In this document: positions 2,112 to 27,078 of the stretch, piece by piece
Layout of the letters: each line of letters opens with the position of its first letter
How positions within the stretch are numbered: the first letter of the stretch is position 1
Notes under the pieces: generated by a model
Told to the model about the DNA's origin: nothing
Seen by the model: only the letters and a program-made list of their open reading frames with translations
The model's database searches: none
Program-made: the position numbers and the translations under genes
NCBI GenBank assembly: GCA_963737255.1
Contig: CAVTSB010000001.1
Location: 386,254-450,253 of the forward strand
Direction: 5' to 3'
DNA from: an uncultured Bacteroidales bacterium
Lineage (GTDB): Bacteria; Bacteroidota; Bacteroidia; Bacteroidales; VadinHA17
DNA: 64,000 nucleotides

Positions 2112-5100
2112 TTGAACATCTCAGTGGGACATAGGACTTTAGAATTCAAATCAATTGTAAAAAAACTGATAATCAGATATATATATAGATTATTAGTCCT
2201 TTTTGGTTACTGGGTTCTTGTTGCATGTCTGGCAGTCAACGCACAAACCGGGCCTGGAGGTGTCGGTAACAGTACCTCCAACAGGCTGTGGCTGGATGCG
2301 GTCAGGGGTGTTTACCTTGACGCAGGGATAACTCCTGCTGTAGATGGCGACCGTGTCAGGCAATGGAACGATTTTTCAGGTAATGGGAACAATGCAATTC
2401 AGGGAGCAGTCGGAAACAGACCTTTTTACCAGACTGGTGTTGTAAACGGTTGGCCGGCAATCCGGTTTACAGGCAATTCTTTTATCGACCCGGCTGCACT
2501 TGGGATTTCAGGGACTGAAGGATTTTCAATTATAACTGTTTTTAAAGTTGATCCGGGATATGATCCGGGTGGCATTTCGGATGGTGAGGGAGATTACATA
2601 ATTGACAGGGCGATATTATCAAATAATCTGACAAGTTTAAAGATTGTGACTGGAAACAAGTATTGTTTCCAGAAACGTGATAACAACAACAATGGGATTG
2701 GATCAAGTCTTGTCAGTACATCCTTAGTTTCAACAGCTCCCTTTACGGTAATAAATTATATGCGTGAATTACCGAGGGCTTTTTATAGACTTTTTGTAAA
2801 CGGTTCTCTTGAAAGATCTCAGGCAGATGGTGATGGCAACCTGACTCCTCCCCCGCCAAGAATAGGAAGACATTATGATTCAAATAATGGCGGACTCGAA
2901 GGATATATTGCTGAACTATTTGTTTATAACTACAGGATAAATAATGCACAGGTCAATATTGTCAATAGTTATCTTGCTGCGAAATACAATTTAACGATCT
3001 CAGCTGCTGCAAATAAGTATGCCTTTCGTTCAACACATAAATATGAAGTTGCGGGTATCGGAAGAGAAGATGGGGCAAATTTTCATAATGATGCAACCTC
3101 GGGTGGGATTCTTAATATTTCGGCTCCATCAGATTTAAATGATTACGAATACCTTCTGTTCGGCCATGAAAATGGTTTAATTACCGAATGGTCTCCGAAT
3201 GAAGCCCCGAACCAGTATCTGAAGCTGGGAAGGGAATGGAAAGTCGATAAGACCGGGGAACCCGGGTCTGTAACAATAAAATTTGATATATCCTCCCTGC
3301 AATCACCTCCGTGCGACAAATTTGTCCTTCTCAGGGATCCGGATGGCGATTTTACAGATGCAACTGTTACCGCTCTTACTTTTGTCTCGGGCACAACTTA
3401 TCAGGTTTCCGGCATCAGCCTTGACGATGGTGAGCATCTCACGATAGGTATGCATAGGCCTCCGGTTGCAGGCATCACTCCCGATCCTGCCAATGTTTGT
3501 GTTGGAGGGACTTTAAACATGGATGGCCATCCGACCTTTGGTACAGGTGTATACGTAAATCATGCCTGGACCGGCAGTACATCTCCTCTTTCAGCTACCA
3601 ATATTCCAAATCCTGTCTTTTCAACATCAAGTGCAGGTTCCTATAATCTGACCTACACAGTTACCGATGCCAATGGTTGTTCGGGAAGCGATAATATTAC
3701 GGTGCTGGTAGCTCCTCAGCCTGGTGGTCCTGTTCTCAATGCAAAGAATCCAAATGTGGGAACGGTATGTGCGGGTCAGGCAGTATCGGCCACTTTCACA
3801 CCCGGCAGCGGAGGTACCGGATGTTCGGATATTTACCAGTACCGTTTTGACGGCACCGGTGGATGGACACCATATACCCCCGGTACAAATTTAAATACAA
3901 CAGGTCATACCCAGGTAGAGATACAGGGTCAGCGATCGGGCTGCACGGCAGGAGCAGGGTGTACTGGTACAGCATGGGCCACACTGGCAACATGGAGTGT
4001 TAATCCGCAGCCCACGGGACCGGCTCTTCTGGCCAGGACACCCGATCTGGCAGCAGTATGTGCGGGTCAGGCAGTATCGGCCACTTTCACACCCGGCAGC
4101 GGAGGTACCGGCTGTTCGGATATTTACCAGTACCGATTTGACGGCGCCGGTGGATGGACACCATATACCCCCGGTACAAATTTAAATACAACAGGTCATA
4201 CCCAGGTAGAGATACAGGGTCAGCGATCGGGCTGCACGGCAGGAGCTGGGTGTACGGGTACAGCATGGGCCACACTGGCAACATGGAGTGTTAATCCGCA
4301 ACCAACGGGACCGGCTCTTCTGGCCAGGACACCCGATCTGGCAGCAGTATGTGCGGGTCAGGCAGTATCGGCCACTTTCACTCCCGGCAGCGGAGGTACC
4401 GGCTGTTCGGATATTTACCAGTACCGATTTGACGGCGCCGGTGGATGGACACCATATACCCCCGGTACAAATTTAAATACAACAGGTCATACCCAGGTAG
4501 AGATACAGGGTCAGCGATCGGGCTGCACGGCAGGAGCAGGGTGTACAGGTACAGCATGGGCCACACTGGCAACATGGAGTGTTAATCCGCAGCCAACGGG
4601 ACCGGCTCTTCTGGCCAGGACACCCGATCTGGCAGCAGTATGTGCGGGTCAGGCAGTATCGGCCACTTTCACACCGGGCAGCGGAGGTACCGGATGTTCG
4701 GATATTTACCAGTACCGTTTTGACGGCACCGGTGGATGGACACCATATACCCCCGGTACAAATTTAAATACAACAGGTCATACCCAGGTAGAGATACAGG
4801 GTCAGCGATCGGGCTGCACGGCAGGAGCAGGGTGTACGGGTACAGCATGGGCCACACTGGCAACATGGAGTGTTAATCCGCAGCCAACGGGACCGGCTCT
4901 TCTGGCCAGGACACCCGATCTGGCAGCAGTATGTGCGGGTCAGGCAGTATCGGCCACTTTCACACCCGGCAGCGGAGGTACCGGCTGTTCGGATATTTAC
5001 CAGTACCGATTTGACGGCGCCGGTGGATGGACACCATATACCCCCGGTACAAATTTAAATACAACAGGTCATACCCAGGTAGAGATACAGGGTCAGCGAT

Positions 5101-8100
5101 CGGGCTGCACGGCAGGAGCGGGCTGTACGGGTACAGCATGGGCCACACTGGCAACATGGAGTGTTAATCCGCAGCCAACGGGACCGGCTCTTCTGGCCAG
5201 GACACCCGATCTGGCAGCAGTATGTGCGGGTCAGGCAGTATCGGCCACTTTTACACCCGGCAGCGGAGGTACCGGGTGTTCGGATATTTACCAGTACCGT
5301 TTTGACGGCGCCGGTGGATGGACACCATATACCCCCGGTACAAATTTAAATACAACAGGTCATACCCAGGTAGAGATACAGGGTCAGCGATCGGGCTGCA
5401 CGGCAGGAGCGGGCTGTACGGGCACAGCATGGGCCACACTGGCAACATGGAGTGTTAATCCGCAGCCAACGGGACCGGCTCTTCTGGCCAGGACACCCGA
5501 TCTGGCAGCAGTATGTGCGGGTCAGGCAGTATCGGCCACTTTCACACCGGGCAGCGGAGGTACCGGATGTTCGGATATTTACCAGTACCGTTTTGACGGC
5601 GCCGGTGGATGGACACCATATACCCCCGGTACAAATTTAAATACAACAGGTCATACCCAGGTAGAGATACAGGGTCAGCGATCGGGCTGCACGGCAGGAG
5701 CAGGGTGTACTGGTACAGCATGGGCCACACTGGCAACATGGAGTGTTAATCCGCAGCCCACGGGACCGGCTCTTCTGGCCAGGACACCCGATCTGGCAGC
5801 AGTATGTGCGGGTCAGGCAGTATCGGCCACTTTCACACCCGGCAGCGGAGGTACCGGCTGTTCGGATAGTTACCAGTATCGATTTGACGGCGCCGGTGGA
5901 TGGACACCATATACCCCCGGTACAAATTTAAATACAACAGGTCATACCCAGGTAGAGATACAGGGTCAGCGATCGGGCTGCACGGCAGGAGCGGGCTGTA
6001 CGGGTACAGCATGGGCCACACTGGCAACATGGAGTGTTAATCCGCAGCCAACGGGACCGGCTCTTCTGGCCAGGACACCCGATCTGGCAGCAGTATGTGC
6101 GGGTCAGGCAGTATCGGCCACTTTCACACCCGGCAGCGGAGGTACCGGCTGTTCGGATATTTACCAGTACCGATTTGACGGCGCCGGTGGATGGACACCA
6201 TATACCCCCGGTACAAATTTAAATACAACAGGTCATACCCAGGTAGAGATACAGGGTCAGCGATCGGGCTGCACGGCAGGAGCTGGGTGTACGGGTACAG
6301 CATGGGCCACACTGGCAACATGGAGTGTTAATCCGCAACCAACGGGACCGGCTCTTCTGGCCAGGACACCCGATCTGGCAGCAGTATGTGCGGGTCAGGC
6401 AGTATCGGCCACTTTCACTCCCGGCAGCGGAGGTACCGGCTGTTCGGATATTTACCAGTACCGATTTGACGGCGCCGGTGGATGGACACCATATACCCCC
6501 GGTACAAATTTAAATACAACAGGTCATACCCAGGTAGAGATACAGGGTCAGCGATCGGGCTGCACGGCAGGAGCTGGGTGTACGGGTACAGCATGGGCCA
6601 CACTGGCAACATGGAGTGTTAATCCGCAACCAACGGGACCGGCTCTTCTGGCCAGGACACCCGATCTGGCAGCAGTATGTGCGGGTCAGGCAGTATCGGC
6701 CACTTTCACTCCCGGCAGCGGAGGTACCGGCTGTTCGGATATTTACCAGTACCGATTTGACGGCGCCGGTGGATGGACACCATATACCCCCGGTACAAAT
6801 TTAAATACAACAGGTCATACCCAGGTAGAGATACAGGGTCAGCGATCGGGCTGCACGGCAGGAGCGGGCTGTACGGGTACAGCATGGGCCACACTGGCAA
6901 CATGGAGTGTTAATCCGCAGCCCACGGGACCGGCTCTTCTGGCCAGGACACCCGATCTGGCAGCAGTATGTGCGGGTCAGGCAGTATCGGCCACTTTCAC
7001 TCCCGGCAGCGGAGGTACCGGCTGTTCGGATATTTACCAGTACCGATTTGACGGCGCCGGTGGATGGACACCATATACCCCCGGTACAAATTTAAATACA
7101 ACAGGTCATACCCAGGTAGAGATACAGGGTCAGCGATCGGGCTGCACGGCAGGAGCAGGGTGTACGGGTACAGCATGGGCCACACTGGCAACATGGAGTG
7201 TTAATCCGCAGCCAACGGGACCGGCTCTTCTGGCCAGGACACCCGATCTGGCAGCAGTATGTGCGGGTCAGGCAGTATCGGCCACTTTCACACCCGGCAG
7301 CGGAGGTACCGGATGTTCGGATATTTACCAGTACCGTTTTGACGGCACCGGTGGATGGACACCATATACCCCCGGTACAAATTTAAATACAACAGGTCAT
7401 ACCCAGGTAGAGATACAGGGTCAGCGATCGGGCTGCACGGCAGGAGCAGGGTGTACGGGTACAGCATGGGCCACACTGGCAACATGGAGTGTTAATCCGC
7501 AGCCCACGGGACCGGCTCTTCTGGCCAGGACACCCGATCTGGCAGCAGTATGTGCGGGTCAGGCAGTATCGGCCACTTTCACACCCGGCAGCGGAGGTAC
7601 CGGCTGTTCGGATATTTACCAGTACCGATTTGACGGCGCCGGTGGATGGACACCATATACCCCCGGTACAAATTTAAATACAACAGGTCATACCCAGGTA
7701 GAGATACAGGGTCAGCGATCGGGCTGCACGGCAGGAGCGGGCTGTACGGGTACAGCATGGGCCACACTGGCAACATGGAGTGTTAATCCGCAGCCAACGG
7801 GACCGGCTCTTCTGGCCAGGACACCCGATCTGGCAGCAGTATGTGCGGGTCAGGCAGTATCGGCCACTTTCACACCCGGCAGCGGAGGTACCGGCTGTTC
7901 GGATATTTACCAGTACCGTTTTGACGGCGCCGGTGGATGGACACCATATACCCCCGGTACAAATTTAAATACAACAGGTCATACCCAGGTAGAGATACAG
8001 GGTCAGCGATCGGGCTGCACGGCAGGAGCGGGCTGTACGGGTACAGCATGGGCCACACTGGCAACATGGAGTGTTAATCCGCAGCCAACGGGACCGGCTC

Positions 8101-10790
8101 TTCTGGCCAGGACACCCGATCTGGCAGCAGTATGTGCGGGTCAGGCAGTATCGGCCACTTTCACACCGGGCAGCGGAGGTACCGGATGTTCGGATATTTA
8201 CCAGTACCGATTTGACGGCGCCGGTGGATGGACACCATATACCCCCGGTACAAATTTAAATACAACAGGTCATACCCAGGTAGAGATACAGGGTCAGCGA
8301 TCGGGCTGCACGGCAGGAGCAGGGTGTACTGGTACAGCATGGGCCACACTGGCAACATGGAGTGTTAATCCGCAGCCCACGGGACCGGCTCTTCTGGCCA
8401 GGACACCCGATCTGGCAGCAGTATGTGCGGGTCAGGCAGTATCGGCCACTTTCACTCCCGGCAGCGGAGGTACCGGCTGTTCGGATATTTACCAGTACCG
8501 ATTTGACGGCGCCGGTGGATGGACACCATATACCCCCGGTACAAATTTAAATACAACAGGTCATACCCAGGTAGAGATACAGGGTCAGCGATCGGGCTGC
8601 ACGGCAGGAGCAGGGTGTACGGGTACAGCATGGGCCACACTGGCAACATGGAGTGTTAATCCGCAGCCCACGGGACCGGCTCTTCTGGCCAGGACACCCG
8701 ATCTGGCAGCAGTATGTGCGGGTCAGGCAGTATCGGCCACTTTCACACCCGGCAGCGGAGGTACCGGGTGTTCGGATAGTTACCAGTACCGTTTTGACGG
8801 CGCCGGTGGATGGACACCATATACCCCCGGTACAAATTTAAATACAACAGGTCATACCCAGGTAGAGATACAGGGTCAGCGATCGGGCTGCACGGCAGGA
8901 GCTGGGTGTACGGGTACAGCATGGGCCACACTGGCAACATGGAGTGTTAATCCGCAACCAACGGGACCGGCTCTTCTGGCCAGGACACCCGATCTGGCAG
9001 CAGTATGTGCGGGTCAGGCAGTATCGGCCACTTTCACTCCCGGCAGCGGAGGTACCGGCTGTTCGGATATTTACCAGTACCGATTTGACGGCGCCGGTGG
9101 ATGGACACCATATACCCCCGGTACAAATTTAAATACAACAGGTCATACCCAGGTAGAGATACAGGGTCAGCGATCGGGCTGCACGGCAGGAGCTGGGTGT
9201 ACGGGTACAGCATGGGCCACACTGGCAACATGGAGTGTTAATCCGCAACCAACGGGACCGGCTCTTCTGGCCAGGACACCCGATCTGGCAGCAGTATGTG
9301 CGGGTCAGGCAGTATCGGCCACTTTCACTCCCGGCAGCGGAGGTACCGGCTGTTCGGATATTTACCAGTACCGATTTGACGGCGCCGGTGGATGGACACC
9401 ATATACCCCCGGTACAAATTTAAATACAACAGGTCATACCCAGGTAGAGATACAGGGTCAGCGATCGGGCTGCACGGCAGGAGCAGGCTGTACAGGTACA
9501 GAATGGGAGACACTCGCAGCGTGGATTGTAAATCAATTCCCGGAACTCACGAGCACCCTGACACCACCAGGAATGTGTAGCGGTATGCAATTCGATTATT
9601 CCCCGTTAAGCGGAATAGCAGGTACAACCTTTGCATGGAGCAGAGCTGTCGTGGCAGGTATCACTCCGGCCATTCCCGCATCAGGCACGGGAAATCCTCA
9701 AGAAGTCCTGACTAATACAACTCCGGATCCTTTGACAGTCCGGTATGTATATTCTCTTACCGCCAATGGTTGCACAAATTCTGTTACATACAATGTTGAT
9801 GTAGTTGTCTACCCGGTAGCGGTAATCACCAGTGGAAACACCGCAAACTGGTGCAATAATATGTCGAACACTTATACAGCAACCAGTTCCAGCGCTGCAG
9901 CGACTTTTGTCTGGACAAGGGCAGCGGTTGATGGGATCAGTAATCCGGCCGCGAGCGGCGTTGGCGGGACCATAACCGAAATCCTTATCAATTCTTCGAC
10001 CGGCCCAGTAGTAGTACACTACCTTATCGCACCCTCGGTGAACGGATGCCAGGGAACTCCTTTGGATCTTGCTGTGACAGTCAACCCTACAGCAGTCATC
10101 ACAAGCGAAGCAACAGCCAACTGGTGCAATAACACCGAGAACACATACACGGCGACAAGCTCAAGCACCACTGCGACTTTTGCCTGGACAAGGGCAGCGG
10201 TGGCAGGGATAAGCAATCCTGACGGGAGCGGAACTACTGCTGAGATAAAGGAAACACTCATCAATACCACAGCAGAACCTGTAACAGTTCATTATATCAT
10301 CACCCCGTCGGTTAATGGATGTGACGGCACGCCGTTCGATCTTTCGGTGACAGTCAACCCGCCAGCAGTCATCACAAGCGAAGCAACAGCCAACTGGTGC
10401 AATAACACCGAGAACACGTACACGGCGACAAGCTCAAGCACCACTGCGACCTTTGCCTGGACAAGGGCAGCGGTGGCAGGGATAAGCAATCCTGACGGAA
10501 GCGGAACTACGTCTGAGATAAAGGAAACACTCGTCAATACAACAGCAGAGCCTGTAATAGTTCATTATATCATCACCCCGTCGGTTAATGGATGTGACGG
10601 CACGCCGTTCGATCTTTCGGTGACAGTCAACCCGACAGCAGTCATCACAAGCGAAGCAACAGCCAACTGGTGCAATAACACCGAGAACACATACACGGCG
10701 ACAAGCTCAAGCACCACTGCGACTTTTGCCTGGACAAGGGCAGCGGTGGCAGGGATAAGCAATCCTGACGGAAGCGGAACTACGTGCTGA
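2112..10790 (+). CDS. Adhesin fragment 1 as assembled: signal peptide, LamG/ConA-like N-terminal region, 20 x 97-aa Cys-containing repeats, first PKD-like repeats
   Basis: 2892-aa ORF with QTGPGGVG..LWLDA..VRQWNDFSGNGNNA..AIRF and GYIAELFVYN..VNSYLAAKY. It ends at a TGA created by the frameshift at TACGTGCT (10781-10788). Confidence 0.85.
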   Translation: MNISVGHRTLEFKSIVKKLIIRYIYRLLVLFGYWVLVACLAVNAQTGPGGVGNSTSNRLWLDAVRGVYLDAGITPAVDGDRVRQWNDFSGNGNNAIQGAVGNRPFYQTGVVNGWPAIRFTGNSFIDPAALGISGTEGFSIITVFKVDPGYDPGGISDGEGDYIIDRAILSNNLTSLKIVTGNKYCFQKRDNNNNGIGSSLVSTSLVSTAPFTVINYMRELPRAFYRLFVNGSLERSQADGDGNLTPPPPRIGRHYDSNNGGLEGYIAELFVYNYRINNAQVNIVNSYLAAKYNLTISAAANKYAFRSTHKYEVAGIGREDGANFHNDATSGGILNISAPSDLNDYEYLLFGHENGLITEWSPNEAPNQYLKLGREWKVDKTGEPGSVTIKFDISSLQSPPCDKFVLLRDPDGDFTDATVTALTFVSGTTYQVSGISLDDGEHLTIGMHRPPVAGITPDPANVCVGGTLNMDGHPTFGTGVYVNHAWTGSTSPLSATNIPNPVFSTSSAGSYNLTYTVTDANGCSGSDNITVLVAPQPGGPVLNAKNPNVGTVCAGQAVSATFTPGSGGTGCSDIYQYRFDGTGGWTPYTPGTNLNTTGHTQVEIQGQRSGCTAGAGCTGTAWATLATWSVNPQPTGPALLARTPDLAAVCAGQAVSATFTPGSGGTGCSDIYQYRFDGAGGWTPYTPGTNLNTTGHTQVEIQGQRSGCTAGAGCTGTAWATLATWSVNPQPTGPALLARTPDLAAVCAGQAVSATFTPGSGGTGCSDIYQYRFDGAGGWTPYTPGTNLNTTGHTQVEIQGQRSGCTAGAGCTGTAWATLATWSVNPQPTGPALLARTPDLAAVCAGQAVSATFTPGSGGTGCSDIYQYRFDGTGGWTPYTPGTNLNTTGHTQVEIQGQRSGCTAGAGCTGTAWATLATWSVNPQPTGPALLARTPDLAAVCAGQAVSATFTPGSGGTGCSDIYQYRFDGAGGWTPYTPGTNLNTTGHTQVEIQGQRSGCTAGAGCTGTAWATLATWSVNPQPTGPALLARTPDLAAVCAGQAVSATFTPGSGGTGCSDIYQYRFDGAGGWTPYTPGTNLNTTGHTQVEIQGQRSGCTAGAGCTGTAWATLATWSVNPQPTGPALLARTPDLAAVCAGQAVSATFTPGSGGTGCSDIYQYRFDGAGGWTPYTPGTNLNTTGHTQVEIQGQRSGCTAGAGCTGTAWATLATWSVNPQPTGPALLARTPDLAAVCAGQAVSATFTPGSGGTGCSDSYQYRFDGAGGWTPYTPGTNLNTTGHTQVEIQGQRSGCTAGAGCTGTAWATLATWSVNPQPTGPALLARTPDLAAVCAGQAVSATFTPGSGGTGCSDIYQYRFDGAGGWTPYTPGTNLNTTGHTQVEIQGQRSGCTAGAGCTGTAWATLATWSVNPQPTGPALLARTPDLAAVCAGQAVSATFTPGSGGTGCSDIYQYRFDGAGGWTPYTPGTNLNTTGHTQVEIQGQRSGCTAGAGCTGTAWATLATWSVNPQPTGPALLARTPDLAAVCAGQAVSATFTPGSGGTGCSDIYQYRFDGAGGWTPYTPGTNLNTTGHTQVEIQGQRSGCTAGAGCTGTAWATLATWSVNPQPTGPALLARTPDLAAVCAGQAVSATFTPGSGGTGCSDIYQYRFDGAGGWTPYTPGTNLNTTGHTQVEIQGQRSGCTAGAGCTGTAWATLATWSVNPQPTGPALLARTPDLAAVCAGQAVSATFTPGSGGTGCSDIYQYRFDGTGGWTPYTPGTNLNTTGHTQVEIQGQRSGCTAGAGCTGTAWATLATWSVNPQPTGPALLARTPDLAAVCAGQAVSATFTPGSGGTGCSDIYQYRFDGAGGWTPYTPGTNLNTTGHTQVEIQGQRSGCTAGAGCTGTAWATLATWSVNPQPTGPALLARTPDLAAVCAGQAVSATFTPGSGGTGCSDIYQYRFDGAGGWTPYTPGTNLNTTGHTQVEIQGQRSGCTAGAGCTGTAWATLATWSVNPQPTGPALLARTPDLAAVCAGQAVSATFTPGSGGTGCSDIYQYRFDGAGGWTPYTPGTNLNTTGHTQVEIQGQRSGCTAGAGCTGTAWATLATWSVNPQPTGPALLARTPDLAAVCAGQAVSATFTPGSGGTGCSDIYQYRFDGAGGWTPYTPGTNLNTTGHTQVEIQGQRSGCTAGAGCTGTAWATLATWSVNPQPTGPALLARTPDLAAVCAGQAVSATFTPGSGGTGCSDSYQYRFDGAGGWTPYTPGTNLNTTGHTQVEIQGQRSGCTAGAGCTGTAWATLATWSVNPQPTGPALLARTPDLAAVCAGQAVSATFTPGSGGTGCSDIYQYRFDGAGGWTPYTPGTNLNTTGHTQVEIQGQRSGCTAGAGCTGTAWATLATWSVNPQPTGPALLARTPDLAAVCAGQAVSATFTPGSGGTGCSDIYQYRFDGAGGWTPYTPGTNLNTTGHTQVEIQGQRSGCTAGAGCTGTEWETLAAWIVNQFPELTSTLTPPGMCSGMQFDYSPLSGIAGTTFAWSRAVVAGITPAIPASGTGNPQEVLTNTTPDPLTVRYVYSLTANGCTNSVTYNVDVVVYPVAVITSGNTANWCNNMSNTYTATSSSAAATFVWTRAAVDGISNPAASGVGGTITEILINSSTGPVVVHYLIAPSVNGCQGTPLDLAVTVNPTAVITSEATANWCNNTENTYTATSSSTTATFAWTRAAVAGISNPDGSGTTAEIKETLINTTAEPVTVHYIITPSVNGCDGTPFDLSVTVNPPAVITSEATANWCNNTENTYTATSSSTTATFAWTRAAVAGISNPDGSGTTSEIKETLVNTTAEPVIVHYIITPSVNGCDGTPFDLSVTVNPTAVITSEATANWCNNTENTYTATSSSTTATFAWTRAAVAGISNPDGSGTTC

Positions 10791-13700: not shown

Positions 13701-16700
13701 AGACTATCTGTGATTACGGAACGACAAGTATTGTTATTGGCAGCCCGAGCACATATTCCAGCGGAGTGGTTACTTTTAATTATACTGTAACCGCGACCGG
13801 CGGAGTTACAGGATTTTCAACCCCTGTGACAGGACTTGAGAAGGATCATATAATAGCTGATCAGCTTCATAACCCTACTGATGAACCACAGACTGTAACC
13901 TATACAATTGAACCTGTCACATCAACAGGTTGCGGATCGGAGCCCGCCGTGGTTGTCGTTACTGTGATCCCGACGCCCCAGGTTAATCAACCTGAGAGTC
14001 AGGTCCTTTGCAATGGAGAAGATTCAGATCCTATTATATTAAGTACCCTTACAAGCGGAGGAATTGTATATTATACCTGGGTCAATGATACTCCATCCAT
14101 TGGATTGGCGCCAAGCGGTACAGGAGACATCCCGTTATTTAACGCAACCAACACCGGCGATAACTTTATTGTTGCAACTATAAGGGTAACTCCTCATTTC
14201 ACTTTTGGCGTATTGAATTGTGACGGACAGGAAAAAATACTTACCATAACAGTCAATCCCACGCCGCAGGTATTACCTGTAGTTGCAGAGGGAACCCTGT
14301 GCAATGACGGCACGACAGGCATCACGCTGACGAGCCCGAGCACGTTCAGCAACGGGGCCATCAGCTTCAGGTACACGGTTGTTGCCACAGGCGGGGTTAC
14401 AGGGTTCACGACCCCGGTGACAGGGCTGTCATTAAATCATGTAATAGATGATGTACTTCATAACCCGACCGATGCACCGCAGACGGTTACTTATACGATC
14501 TACCCGGTTAGTCCTTCGGGATGTGCCGAGGGTCCGTCGCAGGTTGTTGTAATAACAGTCAATCCCACGCCGCAGGTATTACCTGTAGTTGCAGAGGGAA
14601 CCCTGTGCAATGACGGCACGACAGGCATCACGCTGACGAGCCCGAGCACGTTCAGCAACGGGGCCATCAGCTTCAGGTACACGGTTGTTGCCACAGGCGG
14701 GGTTACAGGGTTCACGACCCCGGTGACAGGGCTGTCATTAAATCATGTAATAGATGATGTACTTCATAACCCGACCGATGCACCGCAGACGGTTACTTAT
14801 ACGATCTACCCGGTTAGTCCTTCGGGATGTGCCGAGGGTCCGTCGCAGGTTGTTGTAATAACAGTCAATCCCACGCCGCAGGTATTACCTGTAGTTGCAG
14901 AGGGAACCCTGTGCAATGACGGCACGACAGGCATCACGCTGACCAGCCCGAGCACGTTCAGCAACGGGGCCATCAGCTTCAGGTACACGGTTGTTGCCAC
15001 AGGCGGGGTTACAGGGTTCACGACCCCGGTGACAGGGCTGTCATTAAATCATGTAATAGATGATGTACTTCATAACCCGACCGATGCACCGCAGACGGTT
15101 ACTTATACGATCTACCCGGTTAGTCCTTCGGGATGTGCCGAGGGTCCGTCGCAGGTTGTTGTAATAACAGTCAATCCCACGCCGCAGGTATTACCTGTAG
15201 TTGCAGAGGGAACCCTGTGCAATGACGGCACGACAGGCATCACGCTGACCAGCCCGAGCACGTTCAGCAACGGGGCCATCAGCTTCAGGTACACGGTTGT
15301 TGCCACAGGCGGGGTTACAGGGTTCACGACCCCGGTGACAGGGCTGTCATTAAATCATGTAATAGATGATGTCCTTCATAACCCGACCGATGCACCGCAG
15401 ACGGTTACTTATACGATCTACCCGGTTAGTCCTTCGGGATGTGCCGAGGGTCCGTCGCAGGTTGTTGTAATAACAGTCAATCCCACGCCGCAGGTATTAC
15501 CTGTAGTTGCAGAGGGAACCCTGTGCAATGACGGCACGACAGGCATCACGCTGACGAGCCCGAGCACGTTCAGCAACGGGGCCATCAGCTTCAGGTACAC
15601 GGTTGTTGCCACAGGCGGGGTTACAGGGTTCACGACCCCGGTGACAGGGCTGTCATTAAATCATGTAATAGATGATGTACTTCATAACCCGACCGATGCA
15701 CCGCAGACGGTTACTTATACGATCTACCCGGTTAGTCCGTCGGGATGTGCCGAGGGTCCGTCGCAGGTTGTTGTAATAACAGTCAATCCCACGCCGCAGG
15801 TATTACCTGTAGTTGCAGAGGGAACCCTGTGCAATGACGGCACGACAGGCATCACGCTGACCAGCCCGAGCACGTTCAGCAACGGGGCCATCAGCTTCAG
15901 GTACACGGTTGTTGCCACAGGCGGGGTTACAGGGTTCACGACCCCGGTGACAGGGCTGTCATTAAATCATGTAATAGATGATGTACTTCATAACCCGACC
16001 GATGCACCGCAGACGGTTACTTATACGATCTACCCGGTTAGTCCTTCGGGATGTGCCGAGGGTCCGTCGCAGGTTGTTGTAATAACAGTCAATCCCACGC
16101 CGCAGGTATTACCTGTAGTTGCAGAGGGAACCCTGTGCAATGACGGCACGACAGGCATCACGCTGACGAGCCCGAGCACGTTCAGCAACGGGGCCATCAG
16201 CTTCAGGTACACGGTTGTTGCCACAGGCGGGGTTACAGGGTTCACGACCCCGGTGACAGGGCTGTCATTAAATCATGTAATAGATGATGTACTTCATAAC
16301 CCGACCGATGCACCGCAGACGGTTACTTATACGATCTACCCGGTTAGTCCTTCGGGATGTGCCGAGGGTCCGTCGCAGGTTGTTGTAATAACAGTCAATC
16401 CCACGCCGCAGGTATTACCTGTAGTTGCAGAGGGAACCCTGTGCAATGACGGCACGACAGGCATCACGCTGACGAGCCCGAGCACGTTCAGCAACGGGGC
16501 CATCAGCTTCAGGTACACGGTTGTTGCCACAGGCGGGGTTACAGGGTTCACGACCCCGGTGACAGGGCTGTCATTAAATCATGTAATAGATGATGTACTT
16601 CATAACCCGACCGATGCACCGCAGACGGTTACTTATACGATCTACCCGGTTAGTCCTTCGGGATGTGCCGAGGGTCCGTCGCAGGTTGTTGTAATAACAG

Positions 16701-19700
16701 TCAATCCCACGCCGCAGGTATTACCTGTAGTTGCAGAGGGAACCCTGTGCAATGACGGCACGACAGGCATCACGCTGACGAGCCCGAGCACGTTCAGCAA
16801 CGGGGCCATCAGCTTCAGGTACACGGTTGTTGCCACAGGCGGGGTTACAGGGTTCACGACCCCGGTGACAGGGCTGTCATTAAATCATGTAATAGATGAT
16901 GTACTTCATAACCCGACCGATGCACCGCAGACGGTTACTTATACGATCTACCCGGTTAGTCCTTCGGGATGTGCCGAGGGTCCGTCGCAGGTTGTTGTAA
17001 TAACAGTCAATCCCACGCCGCAGGTATTACCTGTAGTTGCAGAGGGAACCCTGTGCAATGACGGCACGACAGGCATCACGCTGACGAGCCCGAGCACGTT
17101 CAGCAACGGGGCCATCAGCTTCAGGTACACGGTTGTTGCCACAGGCGGGGTTACAGGGTTCACGACCCCGGTGACAGGGCTGTCATTAAATCATGTAATA
17201 GATGATGTCCTTCATAACCCGACCGATGCACCGCAGACGGTTACTTATACGATCTACCCGGTTAGTCCTTCGGGATGTGCCGAGGGTCCGTCGCAGGTTG
17301 TTGTAATAACAGTCAATCCCACGCCGCAGGTATTACCTGTAGTTGCAGAGGGAACCCTGTGCAATGACGGCACGACAGGCATCACGCTGACCAGCCCGAG
17401 CACGTTCAGCAACGGGGCCATCAGCTTCAGGTACACGGTTGTTGCCACAGGCGGGGTTACAGGGTTCACGACCCCGGTGACAGGGCTGTCATTAAATCAT
17501 GTAATAGATGATGTCCTTCATAACCCGACCGATGCACCGCAGACGGTTACTTATACGATCTACCCGGTTAGTCCTTCGGGATGTGCCGAGGGTCCGTCGC
17601 AGGTTGTTGTAATAACAGTCAATCCCACGCCGCAGGTATTACCTGTAGTTGCAGAGGGAACCCTGTGCAATGACGGCACGACAGGCATCACGCTGACCAG
17701 CCCGAGCACGTTCAGCAACGGGGCCATCAGCTTCAGGTACACGGTTGTTGCCACAGGCGGGGTTACAGGGTTCACGACCCCGGTGACAGGGCTGTCATTA
17801 AATCATGTAATAGATGATGTACTTCATAACCCGACCGATGCACCGCAGACGGTTACTTATACGATCTACCCGGTTAGTCCTTCGGGATGTGCCGAGGGTC
17901 CGTCGCAGGTTGTTGTAATAACAGTCAATCCCACGCCAAGGATCTTCCCGGTACCACCGGATGATATTCTTTGCGACAGCACAACAACAAATATTACGCT
18001 TCAGAGCCCGAGCGTTTTTACAACCGGTGTTGTCACGATCGACCTCACAGCCAGCTCACCTGCAGGATTGACAGGTTATACGGCCAGTGCTTCCGGATTA
18101 GGTGAAGGATATGTCCTCGCAGATAATCTTGTAAACTCTACAGATGCTCCCCTGACCGTAACCTACACACTTGTACCGTTAAGTGGTGCCGGCTGTGAAA
18201 GCGGACCTTCTGTGTCATTTAATATTACTGTCAATCCTACGCCAAGGGCGATCCCGGTAAATATCAGCCCCGCCATCTGTTTCGGGGATACTACTGAGAT
18301 ACATCTGGAGTCACCGACTGTGATGACTTCGGGTCAGATAAGATTTGACTATACGATCGATCTTCCTGCAGGGGTAAGGGGAAATGGAGATCCTGACACC
18401 GACAGGTTACCTGGTGATATTCTCTCCTTTATCTACAGGAACGACAATCAGGCAGTCACAACCGTCCGGTTCCTGATCACCCCAAAAGTTACGTCGCTGA
18501 ATTGCCCTGCAGGCAATATCAATACGCAGGAAGTAAGGGTTCACCCCGAACCGGCCAGGGGTATTAATATTGTCAAGCCGTTCACATGCGAGGCAAGTAC
18601 AGGACTGGCAAAGCTGGAGGCGATCATTTCAAGCGGTGCCGAACCTTATGATCTGCTATGGACCGGACCGGTAGGTTATGTAATGGAAGATTCAATTTTA
18701 ATTACCAATCTTTATGCCGGATATTATACCCTGGATGTAACAGACGACCTTGGATGCCAGGGTGATACAGCTATCAATATTGCCAATCTAAGTGCTTCAC
18801 CCAGGATTATACCATACCCCGTTCCGGAAGTTCCCGAAATAAATATATCATGCCCGGGGGGAAGCGATGGTACTGCCAGAATTTATGTCAGCAGCGGAAT
18901 AACACCTCCCTATGAATACTGGGTCGTACGCAATGATGCTGATACCCTGGACACCGGGATATTTACAGATAAATATGACCTTTCAGTTCCTTCCACTTTC
19001 AAGATCATTGAAGACCTGCCTGCAGGCATTTATAAACTGATAATCAGGGATGGAAATGGTTGTATTACATTCAGGACTGCAGAACTGAGAGAACCGGAAC
19101 CGATCGATGTGTCGTTTGAAAAGAGCGATTACAGCGGCTCAGATGTCTCTTGCCGTGGTTACGATGATGGTTTTATAATAGCGCATGTTACCGGCGGCAG
19201 CGGATATTACAGGTATTTCTGGTACCCCGAAACCGGATCGCTTACAGTGAGCAATAATCAGGCCCTTCTTGACAGTATCCCGGCAGGTAGATACTCCGTG
19301 GTGATAACTGATACCCTCGGCTGTACTCAGACCGGTACCTTTACCCTGCTTGATCCTCCCGGCATGATCCTCGAATCAAGTGAAGTATCCAGGAGCCTTG
19401 ATAGTAATTTCAACATCTCCTGTAACGGCAGTAACGACGGATTTATAAACCTTACAGTTTCTGGTGGCTCCGGCGTTTATACTTATCTGTGGGTGGGTCC
19501 TGATGGTTTTACATCAACCGAAGAAGATATATCAGAGCTTAAGGCTGGAAACTATGATTGCACAGTAACGGATATAAATGGCTGTATTCTTGTGCCCCGC
19601 CCTGACTTTGAGCTGGTAGAGCCTGAAATCCTTGATATAGCTTCGGTGAGTTCCCAGTCAACGGATGGATCCTTCCAGATAAACTGTTTTGGAGGCACCG

Positions 19701-21121
19701 GTGCAATAGATGTTACAGTTACTGGCGGCAGTGGAGGTTCTTACGCATATTTATGGAGTACAACAGGCGGATCCGGCGTACAGAACGGACTGGAGGATCA
19801 GAATGCCCTTACCGCCGGAATCTACCATCTGGAAGTTTCAGATGCAAACGGATGCATTACAGTGGAAGACGTCACCCTGACACAGCCTCCTGAACTGACA
19901 ATTGAGCTGGTACCGACACACATTACATGTCAGGGTCTGGGATTTGACAATGGTTCGGTGAATCTCACTGTTACAGGAGGTATAGGTCAGTTCAATTACA
20001 CCTGGTCGAATGGAGAGCACACACAGGATATTTCCGGACTGTCGGAAGGTAACTACAGCGTTACCGTGACCGATGCAAACGGTTGTGTGAAAACCGGTTC
20101 AACGAGAGTTGACCTGCCTCCGGATTTAACATTCAACAGTGTACTTTCTGAATTCAACACCTTCAATATAAGTTGTTTTGGCAGGGCCGACGGATCAATT
20201 GTGACAGAACCGACAAGCGGGACTCCTCCTTATATTTACAGCTGGACAGGGGCAGATGGATTTTCCAGGAATACAAAGGATATCAGCGGTTTACGGGCAG
20301 GAGAATACATCTTGCTGATCACAGACAGTAATTTATGCACTGCTATTGACACTATTACTTTAAGAGAGCCTGGCAGACTAACAATGAGCATCACGCCTTC
20401 CGAAAGCCAGGATGGGAATTTTAATATTAATTGTGCCGGGGCGAAAACAGGAACAATAACCGTCGCGGCTGTCAATAATGCCGGGCCGGTTGAATATCTG
20501 TGGGCCGATGGCGAAATTGGAAACACAAGGAATGAACTTAAGGCTGGTGACTATAGGATTATAATAAACGACTCTAATAATTGCCAGGCCGATTCGATAA
20601 TTACACTGACTGAACCTGATTCTATAAAACTGAGTTTTAACATTACACAGCCATTCTGCACTGATATGCCTGACGGGGAAATTGCTTTGACTGTTACCGG
20701 CGGAATAGGCCCGGCTTATACATACAGATGGTCGGATAATACAACGGCTCAGAATATATCAACAGCTATAAGCGGTATTTATGGAGTAACAGTCACCGAC
20801 CTGAACAGTTGTACGGCAAGTGACTCTGTGATGATCCAACCGTTGAATGAGGTGTGCCTGGTCATCCCCAATGCAATTTCTCCGAATGGCGACCTCATTA
20901 ATGATGTGTGGAATATCGGGCTCAGGGAGCTATACCCGGAAATCGAGGTAAAAATATATAACAGATGGGGTGAACTGATCTGGAAATCAGACAAGGGCTA
21001 TCCGGTTCCATGGGATGGAAGAAGTAAGGATGCTGTGCTTCCGGTCGACTCTTATCATTATACGATTGATCTGCATAACGGATCAAGGCTGATTATTGGT
21101 CATGTGACGATTGTGAAGTAA
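2112..21121 (+). CDS. Giant T9SS type-B-sorted surface adhesin (SprB-like architecture), ~6,335 aa if two +1 insertions (near 10784 and 11877) are removed
   Basis: Signal peptide ends AVNA|Q. The same 91-aa repeat runs uninterrupted across all three ORF fragments. 19010 nt minus 2 nt is 19008 nt, a multiple of 3. C-terminus LVIPNAISPNGD..ND.W..IYNRWG..WDG..YHYTI. Immediately followed by a PorP/SprF gene. Start codon uncertain (TTG 2112 or GTG 2124). Confidence 0.8.
3708..9527 (+). repeat. Intragenic tandem array 1: 20 x 291 bp (97 aa, 4 Cys per unit)
   Basis: Shadow ORFs recur exactly every 291 nt (3997, 4288 ... 9235). Unit VNPQPTGPALLARTPDLAAVCAGQ...TAWATLATWS. The first unit start and last unit end are diverged. 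Confidence 0.97.
10074..13078 (+). repeat. Intragenic tandem array 2: 11 x 273 bp (91 aa, PKD/Ig-like), with alternating A/B subtypes
   Basis: Units start at 10074, 10347, 10620, 10894, 11167, 11440, 11713, 11987, 12260, 12533 and 12806. Two spacings are 274 nt because of the +1 insertions. Confidence 0.95.
10894..11883 (+). CDS. Adhesin fragment 2 as assembled (91-aa PKD-like repeats only; not an independent gene)
   Basis: Consists only of 91-aa repeats and is bounded by the two identical +1 insertions. No signal peptide. Confidence 0.5.
   Translation: MTVNPTAVITSEATANWCNNTENTYTATSSSTTATFAWTRAAVAGISNPDGSGTTAEIKETLINTTAEPVTVHYIITPSVNGCDGTPFDLAVTVNPTAVITSEATANWCNNTENTYTATSSSTTATFAWTRAAVAGISNPDGSGTTSEIKETLVNTTAEPVIVHYIITPSVNGCDGTPFDLAVTVNPTAVITSEATANWCNNTENTYTATSSSTTATFAWTRAAVAGISNPDGSGTTAEIKETLINTTAEPVTVHYIITPSVNGCDGTPFDLAVTVNPTAVITSEATANWCNNTENTYTATSSSTTATFAWTRAAVAGISNPDGSGTTC
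11987..21121 (+). CDS. Adhesin fragment 3 as assembled: PKD-like repeats, 12 x 102-aa repeats, SprB-like repeats, gliding-motility-associated (T9SS type B) C-terminal domain
   Basis: 3044-aa ORF. SprB-type units (ISC.G..DG.I...GG...Y.Y.W......L.AG.Y.V.VTD.NGC) at about 18560-20830. Type-B CTD at about 20858-21118. Confidence 0.88.
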   Translation: MTVNPTAVITSEATANWCNNTENTYTATSSSTTATFAWTRAAVAGISNPDGSGTTSEIKETLVNTTAEPVIVHYIITPSVNGCDGTPFDLSVTVNPTAVITSEATANWCNNTENTYTATSSSTTATFAWTRAAVAGISNPDGSGTTAEIKETLINTTAEPVTVHYIITPSVNGCDGTPFDLSVTVNPTAVITSEATANWCNNTENTYTATSSSTTATFAWTRAAVAGISNPDGSGTTSEIKETLVNTTAEPVMVHYIITPSVNGCDGTPFDLAVTVNPTAVITSEATANWCNNTENTYTATSSSTTATFAWTRAAVAGISNPDGSGTTSEITETLINITTGPVVVHYIITASVGSCTGTPFDLAVTINPTPQVNPVENQVVCNETTTEEVIFTTINEGGTTTYTWTNDQESIGLAALGEGNIPEFIPLNTGTEPVVATIEVTPHFEYGSAICDGPPITFTITVNPTAQVDLPANQVKCNDTPTEDIVFSTVNTVGITTYTWTNDTESIGLAAEGIGDIPSFTAVNPGDSPVTATIIVTPHFTFDGRTCDGPSKIFTIIVDPTPQVVPSVMTQTICDYGTTSIVIGSPSTYSSGVVTFNYTVTATGGVTGFSTPVTGLEKDHIIADQLHNPTDEPQTVTYTIEPVTSTGCGSEPAVVVVTVIPTPQVNQPESQVLCNGEDSDPIILSTLTSGGIVYYTWVNDTPSIGLAPSGTGDIPLFNATNTGDNFIVATIRVTPHFTFGVLNCDGQEKILTITVNPTPQVLPVVAEGTLCNDGTTGITLTSPSTFSNGAISFRYTVVATGGVTGFTTPVTGLSLNHVIDDVLHNPTDAPQTVTYTIYPVSPSGCAEGPSQVVVITVNPTPQVLPVVAEGTLCNDGTTGITLTSPSTFSNGAISFRYTVVATGGVTGFTTPVTGLSLNHVIDDVLHNPTDAPQTVTYTIYPVSPSGCAEGPSQVVVITVNPTPQVLPVVAEGTLCNDGTTGITLTSPSTFSNGAISFRYTVVATGGVTGFTTPVTGLSLNHVIDDVLHNPTDAPQTVTYTIYPVSPSGCAEGPSQVVVITVNPTPQVLPVVAEGTLCNDGTTGITLTSPSTFSNGAISFRYTVVATGGVTGFTTPVTGLSLNHVIDDVLHNPTDAPQTVTYTIYPVSPSGCAEGPSQVVVITVNPTPQVLPVVAEGTLCNDGTTGITLTSPSTFSNGAISFRYTVVATGGVTGFTTPVTGLSLNHVIDDVLHNPTDAPQTVTYTIYPVSPSGCAEGPSQVVVITVNPTPQVLPVVAEGTLCNDGTTGITLTSPSTFSNGAISFRYTVVATGGVTGFTTPVTGLSLNHVIDDVLHNPTDAPQTVTYTIYPVSPSGCAEGPSQVVVITVNPTPQVLPVVAEGTLCNDGTTGITLTSPSTFSNGAISFRYTVVATGGVTGFTTPVTGLSLNHVIDDVLHNPTDAPQTVTYTIYPVSPSGCAEGPSQVVVITVNPTPQVLPVVAEGTLCNDGTTGITLTSPSTFSNGAISFRYTVVATGGVTGFTTPVTGLSLNHVIDDVLHNPTDAPQTVTYTIYPVSPSGCAEGPSQVVVITVNPTPQVLPVVAEGTLCNDGTTGITLTSPSTFSNGAISFRYTVVATGGVTGFTTPVTGLSLNHVIDDVLHNPTDAPQTVTYTIYPVSPSGCAEGPSQVVVITVNPTPQVLPVVAEGTLCNDGTTGITLTSPSTFSNGAISFRYTVVATGGVTGFTTPVTGLSLNHVIDDVLHNPTDAPQTVTYTIYPVSPSGCAEGPSQVVVITVNPTPQVLPVVAEGTLCNDGTTGITLTSPSTFSNGAISFRYTVVATGGVTGFTTPVTGLSLNHVIDDVLHNPTDAPQTVTYTIYPVSPSGCAEGPSQVVVITVNPTPQVLPVVAEGTLCNDGTTGITLTSPSTFSNGAISFRYTVVATGGVTGFTTPVTGLSLNHVIDDVLHNPTDAPQTVTYTIYPVSPSGCAEGPSQVVVITVNPTPRIFPVPPDDILCDSTTTNITLQSPSVFTTGVVTIDLTASSPAGLTGYTASASGLGEGYVLADNLVNSTDAPLTVTYTLVPLSGAGCESGPSVSFNITVNPTPRAIPVNISPAICFGDTTEIHLESPTVMTSGQIRFDYTIDLPAGVRGNGDPDTDRLPGDILSFIYRNDNQAVTTVRFLITPKVTSLNCPAGNINTQEVRVHPEPARGINIVKPFTCEASTGLAKLEAIISSGAEPYDLLWTGPVGYVMEDSILITNLYAGYYTLDVTDDLGCQGDTAINIANLSASPRIIPYPVPEVPEINISCPGGSDGTARIYVSSGITPPYEYWVVRNDADTLDTGIFTDKYDLSVPSTFKIIEDLPAGIYKLIIRDGNGCITFRTAELREPEPIDVSFEKSDYSGSDVSCRGYDDGFIIAHVTGGSGYYRYFWYPETGSLTVSNNQALLDSIPAGRYSVVITDTLGCTQTGTFTLLDPPGMILESSEVSRSLDSNFNISCNGSNDGFINLTVSGGSGVYTYLWVGPDGFTSTEEDISELKAGNYDCTVTDINGCILVPRPDFELVEPEILDIASVSSQSTDGSFQINCFGGTGAIDVTVTGGSGGSYAYLWSTTGGSGVQNGLEDQNALTAGIYHLEVSDANGCITVEDVTLTQPPELTIELVPTHITCQGLGFDNGSVNLTVTGGIGQFNYTWSNGEHTQDISGLSEGNYSVTVTDANGCVKTGSTRVDLPPDLTFNSVLSEFNTFNISCFGRADGSIVTEPTSGTPPYIYSWTGADGFSRNTKDISGLRAGEYILLITDSNLCTAIDTITLREPGRLTMSITPSESQDGNFNINCAGAKTGTITVAAVNNAGPVEYLWADGEIGNTRNELKAGDYRIIINDSNNCQADSIITLTEPDSIKLSFNITQPFCTDMPDGEIALTVTGGIGPAYTYRWSDNTTAQNISTAISGIYGVTVTDLNSCTASDSVMIQPLNEVCLVIPNAISPNGDLINDVWNIGLRELYPEIEVKIYNRWGELIWKSDKGYPVPWDGRSKDAVLPVDSYHYTIDLHNGSRLIIGHVTIVK
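14246..17937 (+). repeat. Intragenic tandem array 3: 12 x 306 bp (102 aa, PKD/Ig-like), identical at protein level
   Basis: Shadow ORFs recur every 306 nt (14194 ... 17560). Unit ITVNPTPQVLPVVAEGTLCNDG...GCAEGPSQVVV. Confidence 0.97.
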
Positions 21122-21140
21122 TTATATAAATTGAGTTATT

Positions 21141-22118
21141 GTGAGAAAGCTGGCATTCATTTCATTGTTAATACTCTTCACCGCAGCTGCAGAAGGGCAG
21201 CAGCTGCCTCTATATAGCCAGTATCTGTACAATAAGTATCTGATTAATCCCGCAGTAGCCGGAAGTGATGGTTATACAAGCTTTAGCCTTACAGCCAGGG
21301 AACAATGGATTGGATATGCCGGTGCCCCCAGGACTTTTTCCTTCAGCGGTCAGGGACGGGTGCTTAAGCGTGGTTATGTCCTGAAAGCCAGGAACTCGGA
21401 CAGGAATACATACCGGCCTAAGACTGACGGTAAGATCGGCGTGGGAGGCTATGTTTTCAGCGACAGGAACGGACTGGTCCAGCGAACTGGCTTTCAGGCC
21501 GCATACTCATATCATATGTGGGTACAGAGCAATACCCAGATTTCGATGGGTATTGCTTTTACCGGGTATCATTTCAAGATCAATGAGGATGAAATCAGGT
21601 TTGAGGATCCGAACGAACCCTGGATGAACAATGAGCTTCGGAGGGGGATCTTTGTACCGGATGCCGACTTCGGGATATATGTGCTGAATCCGAGGTATAA
21701 TTTCGGGTTTTCAACGCAGCAGATATTCGGTGCAGCCGCAAAAATTGGCGAAGACGCATACAATAATTACAGGATGGACAGGCATTATTACCTCTTCGGC
21801 TCTTACAGCCTTGTGGCGGGAAACAAAACCGAACTCCAGCCTTCAGCCCTTTTGTTGACATCGGAACAGATGAAACCCATGGCTGATCTGGGATTCACAT
21901 ATATTTACGATCAGAAACTATGGGCTGGGATTTCGTACAGAACAAGCAAAGCCATTATCGGAAACTTCGGGGTATCCTGGTCCAATATATTCTTCGGATA
22001 TGCATTCGATTTTACCCTCCAGGAAATACAAAGGGTGACATACGGTACACATGAACTAACGGTCGCAATCAGGTTTGGCGACAATGATCGTAAGTACAGG
22101 TGGCTCGACCGTTATTGA
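21141..22118 (+). CDS. PorP/SprF family T9SS outer-membrane beta-barrel protein
   Basis: Signal peptide, then QQLPLYSQYLYNKYLINPAVAG, REQWIG..GAPRT, GYAFD and GTHE. Lies 19 nt after a type-B CTD gene, the established arrangement for this family. GTG start. Confidence 0.93.
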   Translation: MRKLAFISLLILFTAAAEGQQLPLYSQYLYNKYLINPAVAGSDGYTSFSLTAREQWIGYAGAPRTFSFSGQGRVLKRGYVLKARNSDRNTYRPKTDGKIGVGGYVFSDRNGLVQRTGFQAAYSYHMWVQSNTQISMGIAFTGYHFKINEDEIRFEDPNEPWMNNELRRGIFVPDADFGIYVLNPRYNFGFSTQQIFGAAAKIGEDAYNNYRMDRHYYLFGSYSLVAGNKTELQPSALLLTSEQMKPMADLGFTYIYDQKLWAGISYRTSKAIIGNFGVSWSNIFFGYAFDFTLQEIQRVTYGTHELTVAIRFGDNDRKYRWLDRY

Positions 22119-23011
22119 AAACCAGATCTTTTAAGGATATAAATCAGGGAACTGCTCCTGCTTTTATTGAAGGCTGACTCCAGGGCAAACCATAAACCCT
22201 TTGTGGCTCCCCACAAGAACGGTATCGGGGAAGATAGATTTTTTTCACTCAGGATTGAAATGTAGAAAACATCCAGGGAAAGCCTTTTAATGCCGGTGAT
22301 CTTAAATCCTTCCTTTTCCCAGAATAGCTTCACGGTTGCAGGATTAAAATGCCACAGATGTCTCGGGACATCATAGGCTGCCCAATCCCGGCCATAATGA
22401 GCAGCATCGGAGGAGCTGCAGTTAGGCAGGGCGATAATGCAATAACCATCCTGCTTCAGCAGACGTCTTATTTCTTTTGAATAATTGAACGGATCGTGCA
22501 GATGTTCAAGAACATGCCACATGGTTATGAAATCCAGGCTGCTATTGGCCAGTTCCGGAAGATGAACCGGATCCTTCACATCCAATCCAAATCTGGCAAC
22601 CGCAAATTCGCGGGCTTTGCTGTTTGGCTCAATCCCGGTGGCCTCCCAGCCCGATTTCTTCATTATAGCGGCAAAATATCCGGTCCCGCATCCAATATCA
22701 AGTATTTTCGACTTTTTGTTCCCCGCGTAAGATTCCACAAGCCTCTTTTTCTTCTTCAGCATAATATTCCTCGCAACAAGATAGAGGCGGTTCAGAAATC
22801 CTTCTGCGCTGTCATCATGCGGGATGTAGTCATCCGATTCATAATAAGGGCCTATTTCCTCCCCATCCGGATAGCCCTGAGTGAAAACAAATCCACATTC
22901 CGGGCACCGGTAAAGCTCAAATTCTTTCCTGCTCACAAGATGATCAGTACATCTGAGATGAAAGGCTGTTTTGCCGGAAGAACATAGCGGACACTTACTA
23001 TGAATTACCAT
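22112..23011 (-). CDS. Class I SAM-dependent methyltransferase with N-terminal CxxC...CxxC zinc-ribbon
   Basis: Motifs CPLC..CPECG, ILDIGCGTG, ITMWHVLEH and YDVPRHLWHF. Start placed at ATG 23011 (MVIHSKC), overlapping the upstream gene end. Confidence 0.9.
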   Translation of the reverse strand: MVIHSKCPLCSSGKTAFHLRCTDHLVSRKEFELYRCPECGFVFTQGYPDGEEIGPYYESDDYIPHDDSAEGFLNRLYLVARNIMLKKKKRLVESYAGNKKSKILDIGCGTGYFAAIMKKSGWEATGIEPNSKAREFAVARFGLDVKDPVHLPELANSSLDFITMWHVLEHLHDPFNYSKEIRRLLKQDGYCIIALPNCSSSDAAHYGRDWAAYDVPRHLWHFNPATVKLFWEKEGFKITGIKRLSLDVFYISILSEKNLSSPIPFLWGATKGLWFALESAFNKSRSSSLIYILKRSGFQ

Positions 23012-27075: not shown

Positions 27076-27078
27076 ATG

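Follow-up and report, generated by a model that had tools for sequence, protein, structure and literature searches.

The question raised by this locus is what kind of surface protein, if any, is encoded by a very long, repeat-rich and apparently broken coding region that is directly followed by a gene for a PorP/SprF-family carrier. The region lies in a 64,000-nucleotide stretch of DNA (hereinafter, the window; positions 386,254 to 450,253, forward strand, of contig CAVTSB010000001.1, GenBank assembly GCA_963737255.1) from an uncultured Bacteroidales bacterium. A first-pass annotation, made from the sequence of the window alone, had correctly pointed to a Bacteroidales-like host and described a single gene for a type IX secretion system (T9SS) type-B adhesin; that account lacked the two frameshifts, the genus-wide presence of the locus and the apparent swapping of tips that are described below. 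The reading that we favor, with a probability of about 0.6, is that the locus probably represents a single gene, coding for a giant T9SS type-B surface protein that should remain on the adjacent PorP-family carrier and would form a long, non-gliding adhesin stalk holding a lectin-like tip, with three repeat arrays that likely change by recombination; it is preferred over an equivalent of the gliding adhesin SprB, an oligomer like GhpA, a pseudogene, and arrays inflated by assembly. The features of the locus are as follows (aa, amino acids; Ig, immunoglobulin).

2040-2085, + strand: conserved leader hairpin and then a T-rich tract, about 30-70 nucleotides before the start codon; most leaders of orthologues (22 compared) align at the CCGG..CCGG arms.
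2112-2243, + strand: TTG start codon and 44-aa probable Sec signal peptide with VNA at its end; an in-frame ATG is absent and the TTG column is conserved in orthologues.
2244-3458, + strand: tip, 405 aa, a ConA/LamG-like jelly roll and a second beta domain.
3459-3713, + strand: single PKD-like Ig unit; the orthologous units match K319L-like PKD weakly.
3714-9536, + strand: array 1, 20 copies of a 97-aa unit with four cysteines, an unnamed Ig/FN3-like beta-sandwich.
9537-10085, + strand: two single-copy spacers, one of about 92 aa and then a diverged one of 91 aa; other species have the first in 7-16 copies.
10086-13090, + strand: array 2, 11 PKD_5 units of 91 aa, containing both +1 frameshifts.
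10784-10786, + strand: frameshift 1, GTG against TG or GT in other copies; likely assembly error.
11877-11879, + strand: frameshift 2, at the same site of a different array-2 unit; likely assembly error.
13091-14257, + strand: four single-copy Ig-like spacers of two types, D (96 aa) and a diverged one of 102 aa; D spacers number up to about 20 in other species.
14258-17929, + strand: array 3, 12 PKD_5 units of 102 aa, identical in protein, with three synonymous variable sites.
17930-20848, + strand: conserved base with two Ig-like units, each present once, and an SprB-repeat region of 768 aa (PF13573, six stretches).
20849-21121, + strand: type-B T9SS C-terminal domain (CTD) and stop codon (PF13585, E 6.6e-19; TIGR04131, 59 bits with a cut-off of 35).
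21141-22118, + strand: PorP/SprF-family carrier, 325 aa, no cysteine, tail RWLDRY (PF11751, TIGR03519), directly downstream of the CTD.

The protein as a whole contains about 52 Ig-like units and 167 cysteines. Its N-terminal 44 aa show, when read by eye, the basic-hydrophobic-VNA pattern of a probable Sec signal peptide. Tandem Repeats Finder delineates three arrays that together span 12,427 bp: 19.8 copies of a 291-bp period (3765-9534, 98% matches), 10.9 copies of a 273-bp period (10065-13029, 96%) and 12.1 copies of a 306-bp period (14246-17937, 99%). [quoted passage not shown] The SprB repeats, the type-B CTD (CHU_C/TIGR04131) and the downstream porP/sprF gene that it had named are all present, and the domains together with the gene order identify a T9SS type-B cargo with an adjacent PorP-family gene.

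The gene order of the locus is conserved within the genus. A close PorP is found in 138 of 151 genomes of the genus, and in 30 relatives, chosen for long contigs rather than at random, the cargo base with its SprB region, the CTD, porP directly downstream and the methyltransferase gene are present without exception. The interval truB-queA-[cargo]-porP is complete in 26 of these relatives and cut by contig ends in four. Among the 27 complete intervals, source genome included, 22 contain one giant gene, with interval lengths of 7,484-24,873 bp (median 17,866). The order of modules is conserved in the nearer clade, where the single-copy spacers of the source genome are the arrays of other species: the B unit, present once in the source genome, occurs 7-16 times in four species, and the D unit, present three times, occurs up to 20 times elsewhere. 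More distant species have HYR-like and other units instead. The genomes G003 and G149, with flanks 87-89% identical, differ in unit counts (A, 2 versus 13; B, 10 versus 7; D, 14 versus 8; E/F, 4 versus 14) and in the tip, and their arrays differ in opposite directions. Unit identity in the source genome (G000) is 98% in array 1 and 99.7% in array 3, compared with between-species medians of 72% and 67%. The sequences thus show each array as homogenised within a genome and differing in copy number between species, in line with the separate length change of each block envisaged in the first-pass annotation.

In six of the 30 relatives (G063, G111, G045, G078, G135 and G047; loci L052-L054, L058-L059, L062-L064 and L083), the same slot has a different layout that consists of a fibre-like protein of 2,400-3,700 aa without a CTD (with DUF5907 repeats in some cases), an FKBP-type isomerase of about 236 aa, a type-B cargo of 1,500-1,850 aa and the same porP; a similar layout is found in G318, which belongs to another family.

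The carrier bears on how the cargo would be attached. Type-B cargo remain bound to a dedicated carrier according to two reports (PMC9143113; PMC12635249). In Flavobacterium johnsoniae, the CxC motif in the C-terminal tail of SprF is needed for the bond to the GldK track (PMC12635249), and part of the type-B cargo bypasses the gliding machinery, some being static (PMC12618676); the static ones have a linked PorE and the mobile ones do not (PMC12618676). The window carrier contains no cysteine and therefore cannot form the SprF-type bond to GldK. Of its 31 orthologues, 28 are cysteine-free after residue 25, and no intact orthologue has a tail cysteine. In a sample of 201 genomes from across the order, 30 contain the same carrier subfamily; at eight of these loci that were examined, it is preceded by various type-B cargo layouts, and no PorE-sized gene is apparent in the lists of open reading frames (ORFs), for which no family scan was made. 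The source genome (5.1 Mb, 12 contigs, 98.9% complete) encodes nine PorP-family proteins and 16 CHU_C matches, some of them weak, and the T9SS core expected for such cargo (GldK, GldL, GldM, GldN, SprA and PorU) is over cut-off.

The most probable alternative, albeit an unlikely one, is that the window gene encodes the gliding adhesin of this lineage, that is, an equivalent of SprB, with a carrier that couples to the Gld track without a disulfide or through an adaptor. The protein is similar in size to SprB (6,497 aa as given in bioRxiv 2024.01.29.577165), has SprB repeats at its base, is nearly universal in the genus and has no linked PorE, as is the case for mobile F. johnsoniae cargo; GldB, D, G, H, J, K, L, M and N are all over cut-off, including the gldB, D, H and J genes that the first-pass annotation had singled out. 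However, GldI is below cut-off in 8 of 8 genomes, GldH also matches in the non-gliding control Bacteroides thetaiotaomicron, and the lack of cysteine in the adjacent carrier, set against the CxC of F. johnsoniae SprF, weakens the gliding-adhesin interpretation offered in the first-pass annotation. Moreover, a better candidate pair for gliding exists in the same genome, namely an orphan carrier with a tail cysteine and SprB-repeat-rich cargo on contig C12 that have no linked carrier.

The orphan PorP-family gene (C2:760610-761602; also L103, L110, L118, L128 and L137), with the tail AIPCPEF, occurs once per genome in all six genomes checked and encodes the only carrier with a conserved tail cysteine (source genome and 5 of 5 relatives), which makes it the better candidate for coupling to the gliding track. 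The cargo in question (C12:273629-302966; L090, L091) are two tandem, heavily frameshifted giant SprB-repeat/PKD genes with closely similar type-B CTDs, and are better SprB candidates than the window gene. Two more giant cargo genes, with HYR_4C repeats, run off contig ends (C4:1-22745 and C7:1-14409; L092, L094): the C4 gene contains at least 55 copies of a 240-bp repeat, and the C7 gene has 17 copies of a 243-bp repeat and a type-B CTD at its end, with a convergent PorP paralogue. These pieces could be halves of one gene for more than 12,000 aa; DNA repeats shared by the two were considered and found unsupported, with no blastn match. Small secreted PKD proteins (C4:24724-28288; L140-L150) that share the tail 'P(V/E)TG(P/A)xYHI / TxxIxH', which looks like an undescribed C-terminal motif, are encoded in several families upstream of short type-B cargo and carriers with RW tails.

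What the non-gliding stalk would present is suggested by the tip. Its AlphaFold2 (AF2) model is confident (predicted local distance difference test score, pLDDT, 93.9), and the Foldseek matches, at identities of 10-16%, belong to lectin-type jelly rolls; for most of them the root-mean-square deviation is about 15 Å, so that one domain only is covered; the tip is accordingly modeled as lectin-like. Kinship with the receptor-binding domains of clostridial neurotoxins, which came up among candidate relatives, was set aside as a shared ConA-like jelly-roll fold at this identity and deviation. The 359 tip homologues are mostly type-A T9SS cargo, so that the tip is a module often found on such cargo in Bacteroidota; among the 120 matches listed, nearly all carry PF26628. 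The tips of the 27 complete loci fall into eight single-linkage groups, of which one corresponds to the different gene layout and four contain a single tip each, in at least one case owing to a frameshift; the tip types across relatives include DUF2341+LamG, G8-like and PF26628 types. When mapped on a quick tree of PorP and YfhO, the tip groups require 15 changes, a number as low as this being reached in 44 of 200 shuffles, so that tips cluster on the tree no more than shuffled ones. The pattern in the sequences is one of tips exchanged between lineages, suggesting that the ligands change.

No Pfam family matches the array-1 unit, and neither this unit nor the tip yielded anything in Pfam or NCBIfam at E 0.001 (a DUF5597 match, at 0.0016, fell short of this threshold). 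Matches in the ESM Atlas were all below 0.9, with low recognition. The AF2 model of the array-1 unit is a beta-sandwich (pLDDT 95) that resembles tandem FN3/Ig domains. A profile of the unit matches 1,034 representatives; among 20 large matches examined, most carry T9SS-type tails, and one, an intact type-B protein of 6,310 aa, contains about 48 units of the array-1 kind. By this distribution, the unit is a widespread, unnamed and putative extender domain.

These structural results bear on a second and doubtful alternative, namely that the protein is a rigid oligomeric filament that, like the GhpA grappling hook, catches other cells, either prey or metabolic partners. GhpA, at 5,898 aa and 240 nm, with repeats that are Ig-like and a PorP homologue downstream (bioRxiv 2024.01.29.577165), has the same overall plan and size, the window protein is rich in cysteines, and the best Foldseek match of an array-1 pair is the GhpA base, 9FLY (E 3.7e-5, TM 0.47). 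This match, however, is weak and generic, being level with FN3 tandems; a PDB sequence search with the C-terminal 1,073 aa gave no match. Besides, no GhpC/PorE gene adjoins the locus, a type VI secretion system or contractile injection system (T6SS/CIS) sheath was not found in the 98.9%-complete genome with PF05943, PF17482 and PF17541 (the PF17541 control was silent), and the tip has a lectin-like fold, with no hook seen in the model.

The protein described above presupposes a single gene, as the first-pass annotation had it, which is not what the assembly contains: the region is divided into three ORFs (2112-10790, 10894-11883 and 11987-21121), given that 2 of the 11 array-2 units have GTG at a site where the other nine have TG or GT, each GTG being a +1 frameshift. 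Each of the insertions exactly combines the two alleles present in the other copies. Of the two broken units, the one with frameshift 1 was compared with contigs of four public freshwater-sediment runs. In 4 of 4 runs, all depth across the site is one base short (53.3/53.3, 101.7/101.7, 157.9/157.9 and 61.1/61.1 without the extra base), and the base at 10808 that is unique to this unit is in no contig; the best-matching run may be the source sample, other runs may represent other strains, and rare variants get dropped from contigs. Because GTG merges two alleles and the extra base is in no site-crossing public contig, one gene appears likely. When X is placed at both breaks, a stop-free frame of about 6,335 codons extends from the TTG at 2112, and the breaks are probably consensus or assembly errors, as judged from these sequences. 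An intact single ORF in 3 of the 21 relatives of the single-gene type (3,165, 4,291 and 8,159 aa) further supports the one-gene reading. That the frameshifts are real, with a pseudogene or a phase-off allele in the source strain, is improbable: the three ORFs of the assembly as given, the broken genes of other relatives and the possible strain difference of the public runs speak for it, and against it stand the allele merges at one site, the absence of the 10808 base from the contigs, variation in arrays 1 and 3 that is mostly or wholly synonymous, and the fact that other repeat-rich giant genes of the assembly (on C4, C7 and C12) are broken as well.

The arrays themselves are real, and the counts of 20, 11 and 12 copies are those of the assembly. 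Array 1 contains 16 distinct units among its 18 inner copies and array 3 contains five among 12; of the codons that vary, 14 of 20 in array 1 and 3 of 3 in array 3 differ by synonymous changes, a bias that is not expected from random error. In public runs, the array-2 unit is represented by several variant contigs and one tandem junction. All four gametes are present at 10 of 28 site pairs in array 1, and neighboring copies are no more alike than distant ones, a pattern that fits recombination among copies, although polishing across copies could mimic it. That assembly inflated the arrays of a much shorter gene, as the few distinct units of array 3 and copy numbers taken from the assembly might suggest, is the least credible alternative, in view of the diversity and synonymous bias of array-1 units, the variant contigs and tandem junction, relatives with similar array sizes (including the intact 8,159-aa ORF, in a one-contig genome) and the intact 6,310-aa protein with its array-1-like units.

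Several observations weigh against the non-gliding adhesin stalk. The gldB, D, G, H and J genes are over cut-off. CxC tails are found in none of the nine carriers of the source genome and none of 40 tails (from 45 matches) of five relatives, which means that the rule from F. johnsoniae might not apply in this lineage. There is no linked PorE-like gene, the next gene being the convergent methyltransferase and none of 12 OmpA matches being at the locus; given that a PorE is linked to the static type-B cargo of F. johnsoniae, the locus is not a clean match to either of the known anchoring modes. The gene is broken in 18 of the 21 single-gene-type relatives, where the breaks are assumed to be assembly errors too, and several relatives have old arrays, with internal identity of 65-68%.

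Under the favored reading, the protein would be a periscope-like adhesin, exported by Sec, as its N-terminus suggests, and then by the T9SS through SprA, via the type-B CTD; the domain is present, and the route is that of published work. The cargo would be retained on the adjacent carrier, as indicated by gene order and published pairs, with some 52 Ig-like units and the SprB region forming a stalk of about 250 nm, by scaling from GhpA, and the arrays would grow and shrink by unequal crossover or gene conversion. A wider proposal, which we put forward tentatively and consider rather unlikely as a whole, is that this is a genus-wide hypervariable surface-filament locus of sediment Bacteroidales in which base and carrier are fixed, Ig-like modules come from an ordered menu with a different subset amplified in each lineage, and tips are exchangeable; its carrier would represent a third class of type-B carriers, with neither a GldK disulfide nor a linked PorE, and the locus would tune reach and the choice of partner or substrate in anoxic communities.

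The surroundings of the gene add some details. The leader hairpin, possibly an attenuator or stabiliser, folds with z = -1.85 (10 of 200 shuffles are as good); a global alignment of all 27 leaders contains no block at 80% conservation, and the hairpin is found only among the 22 single-gene loci. Throughout the genus, the carrier gene is adjoined by a convergent surface-glycan cluster (22112-31714, - strand; methyltransferases, YfhO, a Wzx-like flippase and glycosyltransferases), of which the first two genes are present in 29-30 of 30 relatives; the cluster might conceivably have a part in glycosylating the stalk. At 57325-63999, genes for a YaiO barrel, a HEAT-repeat protein and a family 2 glycosyltransferase (GT2) synthase lie beside that for a secreted 926-aa protein, which we take to resemble a polysaccharide synthesis and export cluster. 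A second NusG paralogue (C8) was considered and is not linked to the giant-gene locus.

Both giant type-B adhesins of the T9SS that are paired with a carrier of their own and repeat stalks that vary in length are known already, so that the window locus presents a familiar adhesin design in a little-studied lineage. It would be a clean example of assembly error splitting giant repeat genes, and a carrier subfamily that appears to be outside both known anchoring routes makes a concrete question of type-B anchoring. With stalks from about 2,300 to more than 8,000 aa and differing modules and tips in one conserved slot of a large uncultured genus, the locus offers a natural comparative series for how reach and ligand evolve in T9SS cargo. 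A literature search, with most subscription journals outside its coverage, turned up no study of this locus, nor any of periscope-type T9SS cargo.

Among known systems, SprB-SprF of F. johnsoniae shares with the window locus a giant protein of comparable size with Ig-like repeats, SprB repeats, a type-B CTD and a PorP/SprF gene directly downstream. In contrast to that system, the window carrier has no CxC tail of the kind through which SprF is bonded to GldK, the SprB repeats are confined to the base of a stalk of near-identical PKD_5 and unnamed units, and there are no sprC/sprD-like genes in the locus. Fjoh_3952/Fjoh_3951/Fjoh_3950 (a static type-B cargo, its shuttle and a PorE homologue) and PG1035-PorP-PorE of Porphyromonas gingivalis likewise combine a type-B cargo with its own carrier off the gliding track, whereas the window locus has no linked PorE and a far larger repeat stalk. 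GhpA of Aureispira shares the size (about 6,000 aa), the succession of Ig-like domains, an adhesin-like tip, the T9SS CTD and the downstream PorP homologue; the window locus differs in its tip and in having no PorE (GhpC) gene and no sequence match, and no T6SS/CIS sheath was found with the three families searched. Periscope proteins (Rib, SHIRT, SasG; PMC9704523) show the same use of high-identity tandem domains as a stalk with a distal binding domain, whereas the window protein shows length variation between species only, is predicted to be T9SS-exported and carrier-anchored, and has several separately homogenised arrays in a fixed order. Finally, mix-and-match tips at fixed loci, as described for RTX adhesins (bioRxiv 2025.09.30.679566), are a property that the window locus appears to share.

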